Source of the DNA: an uncultured Bdellovibrionales bacterium
GTDB lineage: Bacteria > Patescibacteriota > Minisyncoccia > Moranbacterales > UBA1568
NCBI GenBank assembly: GCA_964500505.1
Contig: CAZCNN010000001.1
Coordinates: 131,826-195,825, forward strand
Direction of reading: 5' to 3'
Length of the DNA: 64,000 nucleotides
The notes under the pieces were generated by a model that did not search any database, was not told where the DNA came from, and worked only from the letters and a program-made list of their open reading frames with translations. Below are positions 4,672-27,371 of the stretch, piece by piece (positions within the stretch are counted from its first letter, which is position 1; every line of letters begins with the position of its first letter). Made by a program: the position numbers and the translations under genes.

Positions 4672-5721
4672 TCACGCCTGGAGAGCCACGAGACCCGGGA
4701 GACTGTCTCCACTCAAGTACTCAAGCATCGCTCCACCACCAGACGACACAAAACTAATTTTGCCAATGGCATCCGCCTTTTCGAGTACTGCGAGCGACTC
4801 TCCGCCACCAATGACAACATAGGCTTTGCTTTCGAGGATAGCGTGGAGGATAGCGTCGGTCCCTATGTCATACGGCTTTTCTTCAAACTTACCCATCGGT
4901 CCATTCCAGATGATGGTCTTGGCGGTAGCAATAATCTGCGTATAGTACCCGATGGTTTGCGGTCCGATATCGAGACGGAGCGATGAATCAAAGTCATTCG
5001 GAAGGAGTACTCTCTCTGAGAATGCAATTTTCTGATCCAACGCTTCATTGGCGATTCTCCCACCCACCAAGACCGCATCATAGCTCTGTTCGAGCGCCTG
5101 AATGAGCGGGAGTTTGGTCTCGATCTTGGCACCACCGATGATAGCGATGGCCGGATGCTCGGGAGCGGTCCGCACCCGATCAAGCTCGGTCAACTCCTCC
5201 ACGAGCCGTAGTCCAGCGTAGGATGGCAGGAGCCTGGTCACGGCCTCGACCGAGGCATGAGCGCGGTGACAAACGCTAAACGCCTCATTGACGTAGTGAG
5301 TAAACGGAGTCACGAGTCGCTTGGAAAATTCTCCATCGTTCTTTTCTTCTTCGGCGTAAAAACGGACATTTTCGAGGAGAAGCACCTGCCCCGGGAGGAG
5401 TGCCTCCAGTGCTGTCACGACTGAATCCCCGACACAGTCAGGCACAAAGACGACTTCACGGTCGAGCGCTCTGGCCACAGCATCGGTAAGTTTGGCCACC
5501 GAGTACCCCTGGTCCGGCTTGCCATCCGGACGGCCAAAATGAGTGAGGAGAGCGATTTTGACATGGGCACTTTCAGCAATCCGGTCCACGGATTTCTTGA
5601 CGATATCTAGTCGGAAATGCTCTTCGATGTCACCGATATTACTCTGCTCGATGTTGAAATCAACTCGCATGAGGACACGTGCACCGGAAAAATCTACCCC
5701 CTCCATACTGCGCAGTTCCAT
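4672..5721 (-). CDS. pgk: Phosphoglycerate kinase
   Basis: VLMRVDFN motif near the N-terminus. Start placed at MELRSM (ATG at 5719-5721), not at the longer ORF start at 5847, which would overlap mraY. Confidence 0.9.
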   Translation of the reverse strand: MELRSMEGVDFSGARVLMRVDFNIEQSNIGDIEEHFRLDIVKKSVDRIAESAHVKIALLTHFGRPDGKPDQGYSVAKLTDAVARALDREVVFVPDCVGDSVVTALEALLPGQVLLLENVRFYAEEEKNDGEFSKRLVTPFTHYVNEAFSVCHRAHASVEAVTRLLPSYAGLRLVEELTELDRVRTAPEHPAIAIIGGAKIETKLPLIQALEQSYDAVLVGGRIANEALDQKIAFSERVLLPNDFDSSLRLDIGPQTIGYYTQIIATAKTIIWNGPMGKFEEKPYDIGTDAILHAILESKAYVVIGGGESLAVLEKADAIGKISFVSSGGGAMLEYLSGDSLPGLVALQA

Positions 5722-5750
5722 AGGTTTCTTGTCTTCAAAAATTACTGAAA

Positions 5751-6887
5751 TTATTCGCCCATGCCGAGGATACCGATCATGACACCAATGAGCGCGGTCA
5801 GTGCCGTAAATATCCAGGCGCGCATAACAATCTTGGGCTCTGGCCATCCCTTGGCTTCAAAATGATGGTGGATGGGGGCAGCGAGAAATACTTTGCGACC
5901 AAAGAAACGCTTGGAAAGGAGCTGAATGGCGACACTGCCTGACTCGATAGAGTAGATAGCCACGATCACAAAGAGGACGAGAGCAGAATTCGTGAGCATC
6001 GCGACCACCCCGAGTGTCGTCCCGAGCGCAATGGCACCCGTATCGCCCATAAAGAATCGTGCCGGGTAGATGTTGAACCAGAGAAACGCGAGGAGTGCTC
6101 CAGCGAGCGCTGCACAGAACGCGGCGAGATCCATCTTGTTGTGTACAAAGGCAATGAGCGAAAAGGCACTGAAGGCGATGAGCAGTACTCCACCGTTTAA
6201 CCCATCAAGTCCGTCGGTTTCATTGGAGGAAATAGCTGCAAACAGAATAACAAAGATAAAAAGCGGGACATACCACCAGCCGATAGTGAAGTCACCGACA
6301 GCCGGGATATGAATCTCATCCCAACCAAGCTTGCTATAAAACCACCAGGCCCCAAATCCTGCGATAAGAAACAGCCACCAGAACCGAAAAGCGAAACGCA
6401 TCCCGCCACCCTTGTTGGTCCCTTTGCCACGGACGCTCATGTAGTCATCGAGGAGGCCCAGGAGGCCAGCCGTGACGAGGACAAAGAGTGGGAGCCACAC
6501 CTGAGAGCGCTTGAAGAAATCCAGCCGAGCGATGAAGTTCGTATTAGTCCACTCAGCGATAAACGGGAAAACATAGTGGGAGAGGAGTACGAGAAGGAGC
6601 ACCGTCACCCAGACGATGACTCCACCCATTGTCGGTGTCCCGGCTTTACCCGCATGGAGCTTGTTCACAAACGTGAGCTGCTCACCATTAACTGAGCGCT
6701 CTTTGATTTTGATGCCAAATTTGTACTTGTAGAGAAGATGCGTCCACAGCGGCGTCAATCCAAACGCGATAAGAAACGCCAAGAGACCCGTGGTCAATAC
6801 TTTGAGCACGTTTATGATCGTGGGAACACTCTGAATCTGCGCAATTTGTATAGCATCCATACCGAGTAATTTAATAACTATTTCCAA
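5751..6887 (-). CDS. mraY: Phospho-N-acetylmuramoyl-pentapeptide transferase MraY
   Basis: NETDGLDGL and PIHHHFE motifs; polytopic membrane protein. Confidence 0.9.
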   Translation of the reverse strand: MEIVIKLLGMDAIQIAQIQSVPTIINVLKVLTTGLLAFLIAFGLTPLWTHLLYKYKFGIKIKERSVNGEQLTFVNKLHAGKAGTPTMGGVIVWVTVLLLVLLSHYVFPFIAEWTNTNFIARLDFFKRSQVWLPLFVLVTAGLLGLLDDYMSVRGKGTNKGGGMRFAFRFWWLFLIAGFGAWWFYSKLGWDEIHIPAVGDFTIGWWYVPLFIFVILFAAISSNETDGLDGLNGGVLLIAFSAFSLIAFVHNKMDLAAFCAALAGALLAFLWFNIYPARFFMGDTGAIALGTTLGVVAMLTNSALVLFVIVAIYSIESGSVAIQLLSKRFFGRKVFLAAPIHHHFEAKGWPEPKIVMRAWIFTALTALIGVMIGILGMGE

Positions 6888-18653: not shown

Positions 18654-19337
18654 TTAGAGATATTTCAGTGCAAAAAATCCGAGAATGAGGAGGGCAACAA
18701 AAACAATCGAGAGGGTATCTATATACTTTTCAATCGAATCCTTGTACCGCTGTCCTAGATGGTACATAAAGGTGGCCACTAGGAAAAACCGCATCCCGCG
18801 TCCAATAAGTGAGGCCAGGACAAACATGAGGAAGTTGATGTGGAACACGCCACCCGCAATCGTAATCAGCTTGTACGGGATCGGCGTAAAAGCCGCTGTA
18901 AATACCGTCAAAAAGGCATTGTCCTGGTAGCGCTGCCCTATATACACGAACTCCTCCTGCAATCCATAGGTGTTCACGATCCAGGCACCAATAGTACTGA
19001 ACAACAACAGTCCGATGACGTAACCGAACATACCCCCAAACACACTGGCAACTGTACAAATAGCTGCATGGCGGAGAAAGGAGACTGGTCTGGCCATGAC
19101 CATAGCGATGAGGAGCGGATCGGGCGGAATCGGAAAAAACGAACTTTCCACAAACGATACGCCGGCCAGAGCCTGTTCGGCCCGCTTGGTCTCAGCCCAG
19201 CCCACCACCCAACCATACATCTTGCGAATCATCTTTCGTGGCCAAGAAAAGAACGACAAAACAAGCAATATCGGTTTCGACGTGATAAACGCTTGAAAGA
19301 GCGGAGCATCACGCCATACCTGTAGAGTTTTGAACAT
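18654..19337 (-). CDS. DedA/YqaA-family membrane protein
   Basis: VESSFFPIPPDPLLIAM DedA signature; 5-6 TM helices. Confidence 0.7.
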   Translation of the reverse strand: MFKTLQVWRDAPLFQAFITSKPILLVLSFFSWPRKMIRKMYGWVVGWAETKRAEQALAGVSFVESSFFPIPPDPLLIAMVMARPVSFLRHAAICTVASVFGGMFGYVIGLLLFSTIGAWIVNTYGLQEEFVYIGQRYQDNAFLTVFTAAFTPIPYKLITIAGGVFHINFLMFVLASLIGRGMRFFLVATFMYHLGQRYKDSIEKYIDTLSIVFVALLILGFFALKYL

Positions 19338-19363
19338 ACCCAGTATCTTTAGCTTAAATAAAA

Positions 19364-19391
19364 TGGTGGACTTGGCGAGAATCCCTGCCCG
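19364..19391 (-). repeat. Degenerate duplicate of the tRNA-Cys 3' half (T-arm plus acceptor plus CCA)
   Basis: Minus strand reads GGGCAGGGATTCTCGCCAAGTCCACCA; the genuine tRNA 3' end reads GGCAGTTCGATTCTGCCTAGGTCCACCA. The copy does not fold into a full tRNA. Confidence 0.5.
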
Positions 19392-19445
19392 CCCTTGGAG
19401 GGGGCCGCCGCCCCTGCCTACGGCAGATTAATCTGCAATGCTCAC

Positions 19446-19553
19446 CCTGTTAGACGTATCGTTGGTGGACCTAGGCAGAATCGAACTGCCGTCTCCACAA
19501 TGCGAATGTGGCGTCGTACCACTAGACCATAGGCCCATAAAAGTCTAACAGGG
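19446..19553. repeat. 11-bp perfect inverted repeat (CCCTGTTAGAC ... GTCTAACAGGG) bracketing tRNA-Cys
   Basis: Arms at 19446-19456 and 19543-19553, 6-7 nt outside the mature tRNA ends; could pair as a leader-trailer processing stem. Confidence 0.5.
19463..19536 (-). tRNA. tRNA-Cys (anticodon GCA)
   Basis: Hand-folded cloverleaf: acceptor GGGCCTA/TAGGTCC, anticodon stem CCACA/TGTGG with loop TTCGCAT, T-loop TTCGATT, encoded CCA. Confidence 0.8.
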
Positions 19554-19666
19554 CGCGTGTAGCGTTGTACCCTTAGACCCCGCCCAAATCTCACTCAAGT
19601 GAGAAATGTGGCGGGACAGGTACAGGCCCGGACACTTGGGTAGGATAGCAAATAGCCGGAATGGTA

Positions 19667-20812
19667 TCAAGAAACCTGTGCCGTAAAGCCGAGTGGTGGC
19701 TTCTTGATTCGAGTGAGGAGATACCGTCTCAACTCTTTCCAATCAACTGTTGCTTCACTCAAAATATCTTCATGTAGCAAATGTATCCGCTCGCTCATAC
19801 CCAATGCATCGGCGAGAGCGTTTATTGTCCTTGTGTAGTTTAGTACATTGTAGAGTGCATAGACATCCTCTTCGCTCAGCGCTATTTGGCCGGTTATATA
19901 CGAGTACAGAGCCTGCTGACCCCGGAGGAGCATCCCTGTATCAGCACCCGGATAGGCAGCATCAATGAGGAGATGCTGCCACGACTCTCCCGACTTCATA
20001 AAGACGACGTTATTTTTTCCTGCGAGATCAAGAAATTCATACGTATTCTGACTGTACTCTATGGCGCGTGAAACAAAATCCGAGAGCGTTTCCCGAAATT
20101 GAGCGTCGGTCTCGGCGAGTACTATCACCTTTTCCAAGGACGGACTTTGAAGACAGCTAGAGAACGTCTTCCGATCAAAGTTTTTTGGTGATTCACGATT
20201 CAAAACCCACTGATCAGACCCTTGTGAATACAACTCAAGCTCACCTGGGTCATCACTCAACTTCTCTTCTGCATACGAACTCGTAAGATCCAACAGCGTT
20301 TCTCTTTCACGAAGATCAATTGCTTCCTGAATTCTCACAACTACGGGCAGAGTTACACTATCTTGACCTGAAGGAAGTAGGTCTTCATTATAAAGGTCTC
20401 GAAGAATATGGGCCGGGATAGGGAGATTCATAGTACTCACTCTCTGTCGTGCCATATGTTCACGCCCAAAAAACTCCTCTATGTCAGCCAATTTTGCCCG
20501 TGCCACGACCGCCTGGTGTCGCAACGTGCGTTCTGCAAGCACTCCCCCTGAACCCTCTCTACTCTCGACATCATGGAGCGTGGCTACTATCATATTGTGT
20601 GCCACTTTGAATACAATTTTCTCATGACCAGGTATTGTAAATACCAAATGCTCGCCACCCCGGCCTGCAAATTTTGGGTTATACTCACCATATAAGGCAT
20701 GATCATCTTTACCTAAATCAAATTTAGGTCGCGGAAGTTCGGCACTTCTCAGAGTCTTAGTCTTCTCTGGTTTAGTGCTCAGATGTGGTTGTTCGAGAAC
20801 TTCGAGTGACAT
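19667..20812 (-). CDS. Hypothetical protein, possibly an atypical protein-kinase-like/APH-like phosphotransferase
   Basis: Gly-rich GRGGEHLVF followed by KIVFKV (a VAIK-like Lys), then DLAGKNNVVF and LIDAAYPG resembling the HxDLxxxNxL and IDFE brace of APH/choline-kinase folds. Weak, by eye. Confidence 0.45.
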   Translation of the reverse strand: MSLEVLEQPHLSTKPEKTKTLRSAELPRPKFDLGKDDHALYGEYNPKFAGRGGEHLVFTIPGHEKIVFKVAHNMIVATLHDVESREGSGGVLAERTLRHQAVVARAKLADIEEFFGREHMARQRVSTMNLPIPAHILRDLYNEDLLPSGQDSVTLPVVVRIQEAIDLRERETLLDLTSSYAEEKLSDDPGELELYSQGSDQWVLNRESPKNFDRKTFSSCLQSPSLEKVIVLAETDAQFRETLSDFVSRAIEYSQNTYEFLDLAGKNNVVFMKSGESWQHLLIDAAYPGADTGMLLRGQQALYSYITGQIALSEEDVYALYNVLNYTRTINALADALGMSERIHLLHEDILSEATVDWKELRRYLLTRIKKPPLGFTAQVS

Positions 20813-20815
20813 AGA

Positions 20816-21913
20816 TCAAGATTTTGTTTCGGTGATATAGGTGGTACTGAGGCCCTGTTCAGCCTGATGGCGCTCGAGCGCGAGATCGATCAGCCGGGTG
20901 AGGAGATCGGTATACGAGAGACCACTCGCTTCCCAGAGCTTGGGATACATGCTGATAGCGGTAAAGCCCGGGAGAGTATTGATCTCATTTACCAGTATCT
21001 CACCATTTTCGCGCAAGAAAAAGTCTACGCGCGCCAGTCCAGCACACTCAAGGACACGAAAGGCATGGCAAGCCACCTCCTGAAACATTGCGATCTGCTC
21101 CTGGGAAAGCTTGGCTGGAATCTCGAGACGAGCACCGGCCTCATCGAGATACTTGGCCTCATAGGTATAAAACTCTTTGGTGGGGATAATCTCACCCGGG
21201 ATGGAGGCCTCTGGATGGTCATTGCCGAGGACTGAGACCTCAATCTCGCGCCCGACGATACTCTCTTCGATGAGAACCTTGGTATCGTAGAGGAAGGCGT
21301 CCCTGAGGGCTCGTTCATACCCCTCATGGTTTTTTACTTTGTGGACCCCGACAGATGAACCGGCGTTGGCTGGTTTGACAAAGACGGGCGTGCCCAAGGT
21401 CTCTACCACCGACTCATATGAGGGAATAGTAGCCCGTCGAATGGTGAGGAAGCGTGCGACCGGGATACCAGCATCGCGGAGGAGTCGCTTCATCACGTCC
21501 TTATCCATCCCGATAGCTGAACCAAGGACCCCTGCCCCGACAAAGGGCACACCAGAGAGTCGGAGGAGCCCCTGGATCGTCCCATCCTCACCGGCACCAC
21601 CATGCAGAACCGGAAAGATGACATCCAGAGCCTGGCTCACACCACCTGCCACTCCGATCTGACCATGGCTCTCCGGGAGAAACATCACACTTTCATCACC
21701 CTCTTGTCGGGTGGTGACATCAGTGAGACCACTCTCGAGTGCTCGGGGGTCACGCTCCGGGAGGAACCACTGCCCAGCTCGGTCGATGGCGATAAGGACC
21801 GGTTGAAATCGGTCCCGATCCAGACTCTCCAGCACGTTTTTGGCTGACCAGAGAGACACTTCGTGCTCAGTTGACTTGCCACCACAGAGGATACCGACGC
21901 GGAGTTTTTTCAT
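20816..21913 (-). CDS. ddl: D-alanine--D-alanine ligase
   Basis: KLRVGILCGGKSTEHEVSL N-terminus and an ATP-grasp C-terminus. Start placed at MKKLRV (21913); the longer ORF start at 21946 lies within the TTACGTAA repeat array. Confidence 0.9.
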   Translation of the reverse strand: MKKLRVGILCGGKSTEHEVSLWSAKNVLESLDRDRFQPVLIAIDRAGQWFLPERDPRALESGLTDVTTRQEGDESVMFLPESHGQIGVAGGVSQALDVIFPVLHGGAGEDGTIQGLLRLSGVPFVGAGVLGSAIGMDKDVMKRLLRDAGIPVARFLTIRRATIPSYESVVETLGTPVFVKPANAGSSVGVHKVKNHEGYERALRDAFLYDTKVLIEESIVGREIEVSVLGNDHPEASIPGEIIPTKEFYTYEAKYLDEAGARLEIPAKLSQEQIAMFQEVACHAFRVLECAGLARVDFFLRENGEILVNEINTLPGFTAISMYPKLWEASGLSYTDLLTRLIDLALERHQAEQGLSTTYITETKS

Positions 21914-21947
21914 AACAGTTGTTACGTAACGAATTACGTAATTCATT
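21912..21947. promoter_or_regulatory. Three tandem 12-bp units each containing the palindrome TTACGTAA (gTTACGTAAcga / aTTACGTAAttc / aTTACGTAAttg): a candidate operator upstream of ddl
   Basis: TTACGTAA at 21912, 21924 and 21936, an exact 12-bp phase; located between the upstream Nudix gene stop and the ddl start. Confidence 0.55.
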
Positions 21948-22422
21948 ACGTAATTGAGAGTTCATTCACTTCCTCGACGTGATTCTCGAGGACCGAGTCT
22001 CCTTCACCAAAAAGAAACCGGGTCCGAAACTTCTTGCCGGCGAGAAACACTGGTATCCAGTGGATATCGTCTGGCCACATGGCATCATAGGGAATAGCAT
22101 CGGTAGTAAACCACTGGGGGCGCATCTCCTCAGTCTCACGAGGCTCACCTTCCCAAGCAGTGACTCGGTAGACATAAACCTCGAGGATATTGCCCCGGTC
22201 GCGGGCAAATTCAAACTCGTGCATCCCTACGGCCTCCATCTCGGTAATAGTCACACCGGATTCTTCCAGCGTTTCACGCTTGGCTCCCTCTTCGATACTT
22301 TCGCCCTCTTCAACTTTCCCACCGAACCCATTCCATCGACCAGCACCAAAACCACGCTTCTTCATCCCAAGGAGGATGCGACCGTCGCGGACAATGAGGC
22401 AAAGAGTAAGAATGGTTCTCAT
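21946..22422 (-). CDS. Nudix hydrolase
   Basis: Nudix box GGKVEEGESIEEGAKRETLEESGV. Confidence 0.8.
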   Translation of the reverse strand: MRTILTLCLIVRDGRILLGMKKRGFGAGRWNGFGGKVEEGESIEEGAKRETLEESGVTITEMEAVGMHEFEFARDRGNILEVYVYRVTAWEGEPRETEEMRPQWFTTDAIPYDAMWPDDIHWIPVFLAGKKFRTRFLFGEGDSVLENHVEEVNELSIT

Positions 22423-23795
22423 AATTTGGATTCAGCTACTACCGGCCGATACATGAGATTCTCAGCGACATAGGGATTGTCTTTCTTCCAGATGACGTTG
22501 TCAATGAAGTAATGATGGATATTGAGAAACACCGTAAAGAAAAAGAAATAAAGCGAGGTCCCAAAGACAGTGGTCGGGTAGCTGAGCCACGCGGGTGCTG
22601 TCCCCCGAGCAACCCAGAGGTCGAGCCAGATCGGGATCAGAGCAAAGAAGAGTGCTCCCAGGAAATAGGCGGAACCAAAAAACGTCACTATCCCCCATCG
22701 GCCTCTTGCCTGCCGATGATACAGGAGCGTGAGCATCCCGACGGAGAGACAGAGGAGTGCGCCCGTGACCCAGCCAATCGTCGTGAATCCTGAGGAGAGT
22801 GTCATGATATAACGATCAAGGGTAAGAGTCGCCGATTCCTTGAGTGACAGACCGATTAACACCGCCGGCAAGAGGAGGAGGAAAGCACCGCCCCAGAGGT
22901 TGTAGCGACTCGCTGTATTCCGCGTCACAGGAGTGTCTCTCTCTTCACGGATGGCCTGATTACGTCTCGCAGCAAAAACAAAGAGGAGATACTGGAGCGA
23001 ATGAAAGAGTGGGATGATATAGAAAAAGTACGGGTGAGAGAGGGCGGGAATGTACCAGAGGTAGATCGAAACGAGTGCGATCACTGCCGAGACTGGTGGG
23101 GTCACTCGCGAAATGATGTACTTCACGATAAACATGGCAAGAAGGAGGTTACTGGCGACAAAGAGCACCTGCTCCGACAGCTTGAGCCACAGAGGCGGGA
23201 GCGTCCAAGCAGTATAGGGCACCTGATAAAACATATTGTGTGCCCCAGAGATATTGGCCGAGAAGAATGACAAGGCCCACAGGAGGTAGAGTGGGAGGAG
23301 GATTGCGGTACGCTCGAGACGACTATAGTACACTTTTTTCGTGGCTGAGAGGACGACCACACAGCCAAATATCTGCTTGATATAATGCCAACCGACAAAA
23401 AAGAAGAGAGCATTCACGAGGTAGCCCATGAGCATGATACTCCCCTGCGACTTGGCGTAAAGAAAATACCCAATAAGGAGTACCGGGACAGCGAGCCCCG
23501 CCCACCACATCTTGATCATAAATCTCCGTCCCGTTCGTAGCGATCCAAACGATTGGCGAGCATCGCCATACATGAGGAGATAGGAGGCAGCAAAGTGCGG
23601 GAAATTGATGAGAAACGCGGCGTAGTAGAGCGCGATGGACCAGGTAAAGATATCGGCACCTTTACTCACCGCCACTTGGAGTATGATATAGGCGATGATA
23701 GACACGCCTCCGACGAGCATGCTATCGAGAAAGGGTGAGACGAGTGACGTCTGACTCGGTGCAAACCAGCCCTGAACCATCCTTATTATGCGCAT
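22419..23795 (-). CDS. Polytopic integral membrane protein of unknown function (about 12 TM)
   Basis: Hydrophobic throughout; sits between two Nudix genes. Confidence 0.55.
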   Translation of the reverse strand: MRIIRMVQGWFAPSQTSLVSPFLDSMLVGGVSIIAYIILQVAVSKGADIFTWSIALYYAAFLINFPHFAASYLLMYGDARQSFGSLRTGRRFMIKMWWAGLAVPVLLIGYFLYAKSQGSIMLMGYLVNALFFFVGWHYIKQIFGCVVVLSATKKVYYSRLERTAILLPLYLLWALSFFSANISGAHNMFYQVPYTAWTLPPLWLKLSEQVLFVASNLLLAMFIVKYIISRVTPPVSAVIALVSIYLWYIPALSHPYFFYIIPLFHSLQYLLFVFAARRNQAIREERDTPVTRNTASRYNLWGGAFLLLLPAVLIGLSLKESATLTLDRYIMTLSSGFTTIGWVTGALLCLSVGMLTLLYHRQARGRWGIVTFFGSAYFLGALFFALIPIWLDLWVARGTAPAWLSYPTTVFGTSLYFFFFTVFLNIHHYFIDNVIWKKDNPYVAENLMYRPVVAESKL

Positions 23796-23844
23796 ACAAG
23801 CCTTGTTACATGACCCTATTGTATCACGAAACAGCCTGTACTAT

Positions 23845-23901
23845 ACCACCACACCAACATACCCCACACACATCTGCTTGCATAAATGTTGGTGTGGTGG
23901 T
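23845..23901. repeat. 16-bp perfect inverted repeat ACCACCACACCAACAT ... ATGTTGGTGTGGTGGT (25-nt spacer) upstream of the membrane-protein gene; same core as the 17458-17488 palindrome
   Basis: Arms at 23845-23860 and 23886-23901; a second hairpin GGTGTCAgccatTGACACC follows. Confidence 0.6.
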
Positions 23902-24153
23902 AAATTCGAGGTGCGAGGATTCGGGGATTGCAGGGGCTTCGGTGTCAGCCATTGACACCACAATAAAGCAACGCCTTTCTTTTTCCCTCTCCCCTCCTCG
24001 CTCCCTTCTACAGCGCGAAGCTGTACCGATGAGGCCCTATGAACCCATAGGGCCTCAAAAAATTTCTTAGACACTTATGATCCGGTTGACATCTCCATCG
24101 AGAATCTCTGGTTTCATACCGAAAATCGTGATCCTCTTAGGCCCAGTGATATT

Positions 24154-24609
24154 TTAAATTTTTGCACCTGCTTCTCGAATCATTTTCAAATGCTTACGAG
24201 TCATTGAATGAAGTGGTCGAGGAAGCTTATCAATAGGAAACCAGCCAATATCGTCCATCTTGTCTGGCTCACCTATCTTTGCTTTTTTCGGATCTACCTC
24301 AGCCGTAAACAAAACAGCAATCCAGTGTGTTCTCGTCTTACCATTCCATCTCAGTGCATTATTAACAGCCCAAAACTTGAGATTTTTTGGCGTCACACAA
24401 TACTCTTCCTGAATTTCTCGCTTGGCGGTCTCGAGGAATGTCTCTCCAAATTCCATCGATCCCGAACCCGGATCCCATCGCCCATGCTCATCGCGACAGT
24501 TTATACTTCGTTTGTGCATGAGCAAATTACCCTTGCCATCATGACAGTAAAATACACAAGTCACCCCGATGAAGTCTACGCCCTTCTTCAGATCAAAAGA
24601 TTGTTTCAT
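24154..24609 (-). CDS. Nudix hydrolase (second copy)
   Basis: Nudix box GSMEFGETFLETAKREIQEEYCV. Confidence 0.75.
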   Translation of the reverse strand: MKQSFDLKKGVDFIGVTCVFYCHDGKGNLLMHKRSINCRDEHGRWDPGSGSMEFGETFLETAKREIQEEYCVTPKNLKFWAVNNALRWNGKTRTHWIAVLFTAEVDPKKAKIGEPDKMDDIGWFPIDKLPRPLHSMTRKHLKMIREAGAKI

Positions 24610-24668
24610 ACGCTATGCGCGATGGCACCCGCCCACATCCGTCCCAGAAGTGTGTCGGGCAAGCTTCT

Positions 24669-27371
24669 TTACTTTTTATGCTCTGGAGCGTTGATCATCC
24701 CACAGCGCTTGTACTTCAAACCAGAACCGCAAGGACAAGGGTCATTACGACCAGTAACTTCCTGGTTCACTATTGGAGCTTGTTTCGCGGCCTCTCCGGA
24801 CTGTGTACTCCCTCCGCCAGCTACCGCTTCACCCTTGAGGGTAGCGAATGATTCTATGTTTTCACTGGCACCACGAAACTGCATCTCGCGGGGCTTTTCT
24901 TCCGTGAAAGAGTCTGTCCGTTGTTCTATCTTCATGATGGTCATGAGATAGGTCTTGCGCACAGTGTCCATGAGACCGAGGAAGAGGTCAAAGGCCTCAC
25001 GCTTGTATTCGATGAGCGGATCACGCTGACCATAGCCCCGGAGGCCGATACCCTGACGCAAATAATCAATCTCGTCGAGGTGATTCATCCAGAGCGTATC
25101 GAGTGAACGGAGGTAGAGCGACTTCTGGATAGCGTTCCAAGTCTCTTTGCCAATCATGGTTTCCTTGGCCCGATAGATGACCTTGCCTTCACCGAGGAGA
25201 TACTCGAGGATGAGACCACGCTTCTCTATCTCGTCTTTGGAGCGATCGTCTCGGATAGATTCCAGCTTTTTGAGAGCGCTTTCCTCATCGAGCGCCGAGA
25301 ACATAGCATTCCCTTCGTTCACGATCTCCTGCATATTCCACTCCCCTTCTTCGACTGAAGTGTGAAACGAGATGACATGATCGAGCTCTTCTCCGAGGAG
25401 GCGTAGGGTCTCTTGTTCGAATTCGCTCATCTCGAGAATTGTGCGGCGCTTGCGGTACACTACCTCACGCTGTTTGTTCATCACGTCATCGTAGTCGAGC
25501 ACGTGTTTGCGAATATCAAAGTTGAAGCCCTCGATCTTGGACTGAGCACCTTCAATAGTCTTCGAGATAATACCGTTCTGGATCGGCTCATTGTCTGGGA
25601 GCCCGAGCGTCGTCATCATGCTCTTCATCTTTTCACCCCCGAAACGTCGCATCAGTTCGTCCTCGAGCGAGACAAAGAACTGTGACCTACCAGGATCGCC
25701 CTGACGTCCAGCCCGACCACGGAGCTGATTGTCGATGCGACGCGCCTCATGCCGTTCAGTCCCGATGATGAGGAGTCCGCCCACTTCGCGCACGCCGTCA
25801 CCGAGTTTGATGTCAGTCCCCCGACCGGCCATGTTGGTAGCAATAGTGATAGCGCCTTTCTGACCGGCGAGCGCAATAATCTGAGCTTCCCGTTCGTGGT
25901 TCTTAGCGTTCAAAACCTCATGCGTGATACCCTCGCGTGTGAGCAGTGCCGAGAGATACTCAGACTTTTCGATGGCCACGGTACCGATGAGGACCGGCTG
26001 GCCAGTCGCGTGCACACCCTTCACATGCTCCACAATGGCCTGGAACTTGGCTTCTTCGGTCTTGTAGACGATATCTGGGAGGTCCTGGCGAGTCATGGGA
26101 CGATTGGTTGGGATCTCAAGGACATCGAGCTTGTAGACCTTGGCCAATTCTTCGGCCGAAGTCGAGGCGGTACCTGTCATACCGGCCAGTTTATCGTAGA
26201 GTCGGAAGTAGTTCTGAAAGGTGATAGTAGCGAGAGTCTTCGACTCGCGCTGGACGGTCACACCTTCCTTGGCCTCTATCGCCTGGTGCAGTCCCTCACT
26301 ATACCGACGTCCCGGCATGAGACGCCCCGTAAAGTCATCGACGATAATGACCTGATCGTCTTTGACCACATAGTCCCGGTCCAATTTGAAAATGATATTG
26401 GCCTTGAGTGACTGCTCAAGGTGGTGAACATACTGGACATTGCCGGATGCGTAAATGTTCTCCATACCGAGGAGTCGCTCCACCACGTTCATACCCTCGT
26501 CGGTGAGGGTCACGGCCTTCATCTTTTCATCAACCGCGTAGTCGGTCCCAGCCTTGAGATTGGGCACAATCTTGGCAAAACGCTCGTAGAGCTTGGTCGA
26601 CTCGCTGTCCGGAGCTGAGATGATGAGTGGCGTCCGCGCCTCATCAATGAGGATCGAGTCTACTTCGTCGACAATGGCGAAATGGAGTGGTCGCTGGGTC
26701 ATCTCCTCGAGGGTTGACACCATATTGTCACGGAGATAGTCGAATCCGAACTCGTTGTTGGTCCCGTAGGTGATATCGGCCGCGTAGGCTTCTTTGCGCG
26801 TAATAGCGAGGAGATTCTCCACCTGCCTGCCGGTAGGCAAGGTCTCGACGCTCACTTCATCAGTGTCTTTGATCTTGGAAACATACTGGTATGATATGCC
26901 TTGCCCGACGATACAGGCGGTCGTGAGTCCAAGGGCTTCATACACTTTGCCCATCCAGTTACAGTCACGTTTGGCCAGGTAGTCATTGACCGTCACGACG
27001 TGGACCCCCTTGCCAGTCAAGGCATTGAGGTAAATGGGGAGAGTCGAAGTAAGAGTCTTCCCTTCTCCGGTCTTCATCTCAGCAATCTTGCCCTGATGGA
27101 GCGCGATACCACCAAGCATCTGAACATCGTAGTGACGCTCACCGATTACGCGTTTGGCCGCTTCCCGGACCACAGCATAGGCCTCGGGCAAAATATCATC
27201 AAGCGTCGCCCCCTTGGCGAGGCGCTCTTTGAATTCAGTTGTCTTCCCCCGGAGCGATTCATCAGAGAGAGAGGCTAGGGTCGCGTCAAAGGTATTGATA
27301 GTCGCCACGATCGGACGGAAGCGGTTCACCTCACGTTCGTTTGAGCCAAAGAGTTTTTCGAGGAATGACAT
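24669..27371 (-). CDS. secA: Preprotein translocase ATPase SecA
   Basis: 900 aa; DEAD-like motor (MKTGEGKTL) and a C-terminal zinc motif CPCGSGLKYKRC. Confidence 0.95.
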   Translation of the reverse strand: MSFLEKLFGSNEREVNRFRPIVATINTFDATLASLSDESLRGKTTEFKERLAKGATLDDILPEAYAVVREAAKRVIGERHYDVQMLGGIALHQGKIAEMKTGEGKTLTSTLPIYLNALTGKGVHVVTVNDYLAKRDCNWMGKVYEALGLTTACIVGQGISYQYVSKIKDTDEVSVETLPTGRQVENLLAITRKEAYAADITYGTNNEFGFDYLRDNMVSTLEEMTQRPLHFAIVDEVDSILIDEARTPLIISAPDSESTKLYERFAKIVPNLKAGTDYAVDEKMKAVTLTDEGMNVVERLLGMENIYASGNVQYVHHLEQSLKANIIFKLDRDYVVKDDQVIIVDDFTGRLMPGRRYSEGLHQAIEAKEGVTVQRESKTLATITFQNYFRLYDKLAGMTGTASTSAEELAKVYKLDVLEIPTNRPMTRQDLPDIVYKTEEAKFQAIVEHVKGVHATGQPVLIGTVAIEKSEYLSALLTREGITHEVLNAKNHEREAQIIALAGQKGAITIATNMAGRGTDIKLGDGVREVGGLLIIGTERHEARRIDNQLRGRAGRQGDPGRSQFFVSLEDELMRRFGGEKMKSMMTTLGLPDNEPIQNGIISKTIEGAQSKIEGFNFDIRKHVLDYDDVMNKQREVVYRKRRTILEMSEFEQETLRLLGEELDHVISFHTSVEEGEWNMQEIVNEGNAMFSALDEESALKKLESIRDDRSKDEIEKRGLILEYLLGEGKVIYRAKETMIGKETWNAIQKSLYLRSLDTLWMNHLDEIDYLRQGIGLRGYGQRDPLIEYKREAFDLFLGLMDTVRKTYLMTIMKIEQRTDSFTEEKPREMQFRGASENIESFATLKGEAVAGGGSTQSGEAAKQAPIVNQEVTGRNDPCPCGSGLKYKRCGMINAPEHKK

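Follow-up and report, generated by a model that had tools for sequence, protein, structure and literature searches.

The array at the Nudix-ddl junction

The window analysed here is a 64,000-nucleotide (64-kb) stretch of contig CAZCNN010000001.1, from a member of the Patescibacteria. Its minus strand carries a Nudix hydrolase gene followed by ddl, the gene for D-alanine--D-alanine ligase, and at their junction lies a short array of three identical palindromic 8-mers in strict 12-bp phase. This array is probably a DNA operator for a small protein of about 58 amino acids (aa), of the AbrB/MazE/SpoVT type, that acts on transcription into ddl. The features of the junction, in order of position, are as follows.

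20816..21913, minus strand: ddl, D-alanine--D-alanine ligase, 365 aa, start MKKLRV; Pfam Dala_Dala_lig_N and Dala_Dala_lig_C
21914..21921, minus strand: 8-nt gap caactgtt from the array to the ddl ATG, without a Shine-Dalgarno sequence; varies among strains with an identical Nudix protein
21922..21953, no strand: whole array, proposed operator; three TTACGTAA units at a 12-bp period, kept in L001-L012, L115 and L285/L286
21922..21929, no strand: unit 3, ddl-proximal; TTACGTAt in L012
21930..21933, minus strand: spacer 2, ttcg (mRNA sense); ttcg in five sequences, tagg in L285
21934..21941, no strand: unit 2, central; unchanged in six of six orthologous junctions
21942..21945, minus strand: spacer 1, tgaa (mRNA sense); cgaa, taaa, ttaa or ttta in relatives
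21946..21953, no strand: unit 1 in mRNA order, Nudix-proximal; holds the Nudix TAA, and reads TTACATAA in L011 and L012
21946..22422, minus strand: Nudix hydrolase gene, 158 aa, by Pfam; its 3' end bears the array in all relatives examined
22476..22504, minus strand: promoter-like TTGACA-17-GACAAT upstream of the Nudix gene, a consensus match only

In the reading of the window, all three units are exact and begin exactly 12 bp apart; in their fuller form they are contiguous 12-mers (AATTACGTAATg, AATTACGTAATT and cGTTACGTAACa), and the entire 32 bp constitute a near-perfect palindrome with a single transition mismatch. An earlier note on this DNA had described three perfect palindromes at this spacing, and they are indeed present, about 10 bp away from the interval given there (21912-21947). 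In the mRNA sense the junction reads ...ctc tca aTT ACG TAA tgaa TTACGTAA ttcg TTACGTAA caactgtt ATG aaa aaa ctc... The array had also been placed between the Nudix stop and the ddl start; it does lie upstream of the ddl ATG, at a distance of 8 nt that is typical of the regulator genes described below, but the Nudix stop codon TAA (21946-21948) is made of the final three bases of the Nudix-proximal unit.

These three units are the sole copies of TTACGTAA in the window, against 0.18 on average, and never more than one, in 100 dinucleotide-preserving shuffles, and no second phased dyad occurs there with up to three mismatches allowed. Near-matches with at most one mismatch number 6 outside the array, compared with about 21 +/- 5 in mononucleotide shuffles of the window, a deficit that could be due to avoidance of stray sites or merely to TA/CG dinucleotide bias. 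An Rfam scan of the window returned three tRNAs only and nothing at the array, and a sigma-70 promoter scan and a terminator scan of positions 19000-25000 gave no match at the array.

Conservation of the array in relatives

Ten contigs from different samples share an identical Nudix protein and an identical array and differ in the adjacent 8 nt (CAACTGTT or CAACGGCT). In L115, whose ddl product is 93% identical, the spacers are cgaa and ttcg. At 80% ddl identity (L011) the array reads TTACATAA-taaa-TTACGTAA-ttcg-TTACGTAA, and at 70% (L012, Moranbacteria) it reads TTACATAA-ttaa-TTACGTAA-ttcg-TTACGTAt and stands behind an earlier Nudix stop. Behind an orthologous Nudix gene, two further relatives (L285/L286, SecA 87% identical) carry TTACGTAA-ttta-TTACGTAA-tagg-TTACGTAA, the sole TTACGTAA copies in 22.7 kb; no ddl adjoins this array, and the next gene, encoding a HEPN_AbiV-domain protein, lies about 310 nt away. 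The presence of ddl next to the array is confined to the window lineage.

In a six-way alignment, variable positions make up 2 of 24 in the units versus 5 of 8 in the spacers (Fisher p=0.0048), and the 12-bp phase is constant. Because the units are kept in phase while the spacers and the adjacent 8 nt drift, the array is under purifying selection as three fixed 8-mers in register, the signature of a DNA site.

Distribution of the motif across genomes

A scan of one genome per species (185,579 species) with the query RTTACGTAAYNNRTTACGTAAY yielded at least 119 loci with a dyad, their lineage labels being taken from record titles. Of the 119 listed, 57 are assigned to Moran-, Sacchari-, Parcu-, Doudna-, Davies-, Veblen- or Nomurabacteria or to the "Patescibacteria group", 18 are "Bdellovibrionales" metagenome-assembled genomes (MAGs) produced by the automated pipeline that also gave L115, 13 are unclassified "bacterium" entries and 31 bear other names. 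Among the matches listed, the phased dyad is concentrated in Patescibacteria, its arrays comprise 2-5 units, always at 12 bp and most commonly with the spacer ttaa, and each dyad-bearing genome has 1-3 loci. The 18 "uncultured Bdellovibrionales" MAGs (L115, L154, L118, L121, L181 and 13 more) behave as Patescibacteria and their labels look wrong; L118, L121 and L181 encode an AbrB-like protein of the type found in the candidate phyla radiation (CPR).

In 629 kb of mostly CPR loci, a census of every palindromic 8-mer that recurs after a gap of 3-6 nt retrieved only TTACGTAA and its spacer-derived AATTAATT, which rules out a general hairpin habit of CPR genomes. A random occurrence of the motif, named in the earlier note as what would refute its proposal, is contradicted both by this census and by the shuffles.

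The genes downstream of arrays include rplA, rpsB, an M16 peptidase gene, MTHFR, DUF5654, a greA-like gene, msrB, PAP2, rhodanese and pdxT, with mnmA found twice, in related MAGs; those upstream include Nudix, DUF2726, def, pth and others. Array sites are kept within lineages and not across the superphylum. Many arrays occupy the entire gap between a stop and the following start, and some lie between convergent genes or beside a separate canonical terminator (L083, L085, L098, L120, L154).

A small AbrB/MazE-fold protein as candidate regulator

Open reading frames (ORFs) that begin just past arrays encode a basic protein of 53-61 aa with the pattern ..NIRKLTKVGGKSIGLTLPIELVRELGWKEKQKV..IKDW.. 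Its gene starts 8-20 nt past the array at L089, L112, L118, L121, L145 and L146, and a tblastn search added L171 (array about 10 nt upstream), L181 (about 60 nt) and L179 (dyad about 2 kb from the gene). Seven of these nine proteins score above the cut-off for Pfam PF04014 (MazE/AbrB/SpoVT). An AlphaFold2 model (predicted local distance difference test score, pLDDT, 80) has the order strand-strand-helix-strand-strand, and its best Foldseek matches in the Protein Data Bank (PDB) are MazE, the AbrB N-terminal domain (including the DNA-bound structure 2k1n), SpoVT, Sso7c4-like proteins and VapB, with probabilities of 0.93-1.0; sequence-level PDB matches to the AbrB N-terminal domain are weak (E ~0.1). 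In the model, the regulator has the swapped-hairpin DNA-binding fold. Clustering at 90% identity gives at least 3,667 clusters for the family; its named members all come from Patescibacteria and are annotated as "hypothetical" or as generic AbrB-family proteins.

A role as the antitoxin of a type II toxin-antitoxin system was rejected because 81 distinct loci have no conserved neighbouring gene: no cluster of neighbouring genes has more than 6 members, their identities are mixed and there is no conserved toxin gene. Five genomes contain the regulator with its own array together with extra arrays (L145 with L120 and L134, L146 with L084, L112 with L124, L089 with L188, and L181 with L200). At L181:3811-4111 the regulator gene and two flanking dyads are located between homologues of two genes that adjoin in the window (4672-6887), which suggests that regulator and array move together as a cassette.

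The association also holds when approached from the protein. Eighty metagenome loci were fetched by the regulator protein alone, giving 65 distinct upstream regions, in which a dyad was required to score at least 14/16 against TTACGTAA-N4-TTACGTAA within 100 nt of the ATG. Such a dyad is present in 45% of the 65 regions, compared with 0.31% of 2,914 background 100-nt windows from the same loci. Upstream regions with an exact unit (38) have 2-4 units, and their arrays end at a median distance of 10 nt from the ATG. In 18 of these 38, against 1 of 38 control windows, a -10-like hexamer (at least 5/6) ends no more than 16 nt upstream of the array; typical examples are ggTAGAATgg, TACAAT and TATAAT. 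At regulator genes, the array is therefore in the position of a repressor operator over the transcription start.

Most of the remaining upstream regions carry other 8-mers at the same 12-bp period, which follow the G-x-x-S loop of the protein. The loop ITRVGKTS pairs with ATACNTAT-ttaa-ATACTTAC, the loops SGGGKS and TKSGNGS pair with TTCAGGAA or TTCAGTAA, and the loops SRIGNKS and KIGDKS pair with ATACCTAT-ttaa-ATAGGTAT. These pairings were assessed by eye, without a formal statistic. Because loop variants track 8-mer variants, the comparison supports the regulator protein itself as the predicted reader of the arrays.

Proposed mechanism and the case for an operator

The window's array agrees in sequence and spacing with those that precede the regulator's own gene, and is therefore most likely the binding site of that AbrB/MazE-type protein. 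The cooperative operator for a dimeric regulator suggested in the earlier note is favoured by the conservation of the units, the concentration in Patescibacteria, the position upstream of the AbrB/MazE gene and the co-variation. We infer that the window's genome encodes the regulator, along with the physical binding of the regulator to the array, its stoichiometry, and the sign and size of the array's effect on ddl.

Each 8-bp palindrome, within a 12-bp unit such as AATTACGTAATT, would be bound by one regulator dimer, so that three contiguous units could accommodate three dimers, each offset by about 50 degrees and nearly on one helix face. An operator between the -10 element and the ATG occupies the classical position for autorepression, and at the regulator's own gene the bound array would block open-complex formation or promoter escape. 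In the window, less transcription would reach ddl and the gene behind it when the array is occupied: the bound array could be a roadblock for polymerase reading through from the Nudix operon, or could occlude a weak internal promoter.

The promoter-operator reading of the regulator genes does not carry over directly to the window, because no -10-like hexamer precedes its array. In L285 the Nudix stop TAG is contained in TAGAAT, which abuts unit 1, and L012 has AAGAAT at the same place. On the simplest reading, an ancestral promoter-operator module would have been located behind the Nudix gene, its -10 element having decayed in the window lineage, where the Nudix frame now enters unit 1. The main target of the array as now preserved would be read-through transcription out of the Nudix operon, for which the TTGACA-17-GACAAT at 22504-22476 is a possible source.

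Several observations weigh against this interpretation. The earlier note had reported no cognate regulator adjacent to the array, and the finding extends further, as no regulator gene was found in the window; it is also absent from the window's counterpart of the position that it occupies in L181, a related Moranbacteria genome. The structural matches have modest E-values (0.05-0.5), the domain being tiny. The best -10-like hexamer before the window array scores 2/6, and the regulator genes and L285 do have one. The array had been described as lying upstream of ddl, which is correct locally; because L285/L286 keep the array without ddl, however, it is tied to the Nudix 3' end and not to ddl. 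A conserved regulon was sought and rejected, since array-adjacent genes in CPR loci share no function. Arrays between convergent genes or directly after canonical terminators (L083, L098, L154) occur where a promoter is unexpected. Lastly, 7 of 18 three-unit arrays are fully palindromic overall, a property not required by a model of one dimer per unit.

Alternative explanations

Two alternatives are regarded as unlikely, to an equal degree. The first is an RNA element, in which the transcript would form a 14-bp hairpin, or 8-bp hairpins with UGAA/UUCG loops, that serves as a stabiliser, processing site, attenuator, terminator or ddl translation gate. The 32-nt near-perfect palindrome lends itself to such a structure: its single mismatch is a G.U pair in sense RNA, and the 14-bp hairpin is found in both the minimum-free-energy and the centroid structures. 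The spacers are fully complementary in the 7 of 18 three-unit arrays mentioned above, A-run/T-run flanks resemble bidirectional terminators at L127, L131 and L176, and the spacer changes in L285 preserve pairing through two double changes and two G.U pairs. The fold is nevertheless unexceptional (z = -1.77), with 10 of 200 shuffles folding equally well, and a hairpin needs complementarity, not one 8-mer fixed across a superphylum in which the census found generic palindrome dyads to be absent from CPR loci. In L011 and L012, sense-strand pairing is broken by changes (to A.C) that would leave G.U pairs in the antisense strand, and for this reason there is no strand-consistent selection on RNA pairing. 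Moreover, many arrays have direct-repeat spacers (ttta/ttta, taaa/taaa, ctaa/ctaa) or non-pairing degenerate outer units, and several (L083, L085, L120, L154) stand beside a separate canonical terminator. Concerted changes that preserve a palindrome can also arise by template-switch mutation. An intrinsic (Rho-independent) terminator in particular was rejected on the blank scan, the 2 G-C pairs per 8-bp stem, the z-score and the lack of a U-tract behind the hairpin, where the sequence is CAACUGUUAUG. The RNA hairpin is kept as a minor or additional role.

The second proposes that another Patescibacteria factor binds the array and that the small AbrB-like gene is merely its commonest target. 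The lack of the regulator gene in the window is consistent with this proposal, as is the fact that a motif upstream of a gene is a correlation only, binding of the AbrB-like protein being predicted. A DNA-binding fold, an operator in the position typical of autoregulation and the co-variation of loop and 8-mer fit the predictions for a reader that regulates itself and would be unexpected of a passive target.

Less probable still is that a largely neutral 12-bp minisatellite, or a portable promoter-operator module, was deposited at the Nudix 3' end and now leaves ddl unaffected. Such a repeat could persist by inheritance and palindrome-correcting mutation, and its copy number does range from 2 to at least 5 among loci; the assembly is broken at the L126 array, near-identical modules are present at L120, L134 and L145, and the window is without the -10 element that accompanies the L285 array. 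However, the units are constant while the spacers vary at 70% ddl identity, the adjacent 8 nt vary between strains, and neutral intergenic DNA would not retain 22 of 24 unit positions at that distance.

The remaining candidates were dismissed as well. REP/BIME-type repeats or DNA-uptake sequences do not agree with the single array in 64 kb, with no further exact unit, and the 1-3 loci per genome among the matches listed. In a broader comparison, sequence, copy number or position spoke against LexA, NrdR, HrcA, parS and dif, and likewise against REP elements and DNA-uptake sequences.

Start of ddl, neighbouring genes and host genome

The array creates an in-frame upstream ATG at 21946-21944, as the earlier note had pointed out, and public-assembly calls of ddl have 376 aa, 11 codons extra that run into the array. 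This spurious ATG is composed of the last A of unit 1 and the T of spacer 1, a T specific to the window lineage: it is absent from L115 (cgaa), L011 (taaa) and L285, and L012 has an intervening in-frame stop. Because ddl homologues are about 365 aa long and the upstream ATG is not conserved in relatives, MKKLRV at 21913, which that note named as the alternative, is the true start, and the 376-aa calls are over-extended. A loose Shine-Dalgarno match at -22 to -4 is found in only 7 of 34 window genes, and the genome largely starts translation without Shine-Dalgarno sequences; because it seldom uses them, arguments of this type on ddl translation were dropped.

Two uncharacterised proteins are putative members of a Nudix-ddl operon and are kept in the loci of relatives. 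One, of 381 aa (19667-20812, minus strand), follows ddl after a 4-nt gap and has no Pfam match. The other, a multi-pass membrane protein of 458 aa (22419-23795, minus strand), overlaps the Nudix start and has a sub-threshold L6_membrane match (20 bits versus a cut-off of 30).

The window has about 52% G+C and tightly packed genes, nearly all on one strand. The named relatives of its SecA (72-88% identity) all belong to Candidatus Moranbacteria/Moraniibacteriota, and the window is therefore part of a Patescibacteria (CPR) genome. L115, the GTDB representative of the species, has 92% nucleotide identity to the window over 7.3 kb, and its label "uncultured Bdellovibrionales" is evidently wrong.

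Other occurrences of the dyad

Outside the arrays discussed so far, the dyad was encountered in several other settings. In L082, L104, L133, L138 and L149 (Proteobacteria, Bacteroidota) it lies 10-56 nt upstream of a gene for a MarR-GNAT fusion of about 320 aa, and L165 and L167 probably have the same arrangement. It appears to be an autoregulatory MarR operator that shares the core sequence but is unrelated; it was rejected as an explanation of the window array, which no such gene flanks. Viral contigs gave 69 dyad matches without the ttaa spacer bias and without AbrB-like genes, and these are mostly due to chance. A viral contig, L052:117-230 (IMG/VR contig 3300042382_000756), has (TTACGTAAccgg) five times in phase with two more GGTTACGTAACC units upstream. 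In Halobacillus (L101), dyads with the spacer ccgg lie on both sides of a gene, and in a Clostridia MAG (L150) they stand before one of LacI type; together with L052 they represent a separate, GGTTACGTAACC-type operator family. A coding coincidence produces the dyad (..GGVSAN..LRNQLRN..) in a conserved gene at four to five loci (L096, L140, L151, L155, L195), which would count as false sites in motif scans.

Within CPR genomes, L120, L134 and L145 of one Saccharibacteria MAG share nearly the same 36-40 nt module, with spacers ttga/tcaa and the flank tccg, which suggests intragenomic spread of the arrays by duplication or conversion. L126:3510-3680 is an (TTACGTAActaa)n array with N runs on both sides; it is long enough to break assembly, and the copy number can far exceed 5. 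In two CPR MAGs (L128:3125-3144 and L141:4245-4264) the dyad is 11 nt upstream of the same internal GTG (VNYF.DHDELYWNF) in an ORF of about 575 aa; the annotation of these ORFs probably runs too far, across the array, as it does for ddl.

Implications

It is judged an even question whether a minimal AbrB-type regulator of about 58 aa, consisting of the domain alone, is common to the Patescibacteria and reads 12-bp-phased TTACGTAA arrays as compact operators fitted into the very short intergenic gaps of these reduced genomes, beside housekeeping genes (ddl in the window; rpsB, rplA, mnmA, msrB and pdxT in other genomes). The best explanation of the observations is a system of a known kind, a repressor with operators of phased palindromes, whose form here is new in being minimal and lineage-wide. 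In the literature searched there is no description of the TTACGTAA motif or of the regulator protein, the Patescibacteria LexA motif having been left out of the comparison. So far as that literature shows, this would be, if true, the first superphylum-wide CPR pair of transcription factor and motif besides LexA. CPR gene regulation is almost unexplored, with few recognisable transcription factors and most members not cultivable. In the window lineage, cell-wall precursor synthesis would be tied to the regulator, with D-Ala-D-Ala ligase expression under its control, and regulons could be read from thousands of existing MAGs. A sharp motif and a synthetically makeable protein of 58 residues constitute a directly testable system, and cultivable Saccharibacteria allow genetics. 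A practical gain is that the ddl start codon is fixed.

Comparison with known systems

The closest relatives by fold are AbrB, Abh and SpoVT of Bacillus, which share PF04014 and the predicted fold with the CPR regulator; the best structural matches include the AbrB N-terminal domain with DNA (2k1n) as well as SpoVT (2w1t). AbrB represses its own promoter. It differs in having a C-terminal tetramerisation domain and long AT-rich sites without a sharp consensus, whereas the CPR regulator consists of the DNA-binding domain alone (53-61 aa), with a sharp 8-bp palindrome at a strict 12-bp period. The antitoxins MazE, VapB and PrlF provide the best structural matches (2mrn, 1ub4, 1mvf, 3zvk) and are likewise small dimers on palindromes in their own promoters; unlike them, the CPR regulator has no toxin-binding tail and no conserved downstream toxin gene, and its sites occur at many unrelated loci of the same genome. 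The archaeal AbrB-like protein of the Sso7c4 type (PDB 5itm) is similar as a domain-only dimer of about 56 aa (template modelling, TM, score ~0.56), but has been described as a general chromatin protein and not as a specific reader of phased palindromes.

As regards the architecture of the sites, MraZ, which belongs to the AbrB superfamily, recognises short repeats in a phased array upstream of the dcw (cell-wall/division) operon and controls that operon, of which ddl is a member in many bacteria. MraZ differs in its size (about 150 aa, two domains) and in its direct TGGGN repeats at 10-bp spacing at an operon head; an MraZ box array was rejected for the window, in which the array consists of palindromic TTACGTAA at a 12-bp period with no adjacent mraZ. 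The MetJ met-boxes are tandem 8-bp AGACGTCT palindromes with an ACGT core, bound cooperatively by one dimer per box and present in 2-5 copies. The analogy with the CPR arrays extends to the tandem palindromic 8-mers, the ACGT core, the variable copy number and the logic of a cooperative repressor on an array; MetJ, however, is a ribbon-helix-helix protein confined to Gammaproteobacteria, and the period of its abutting boxes is 8 bp.

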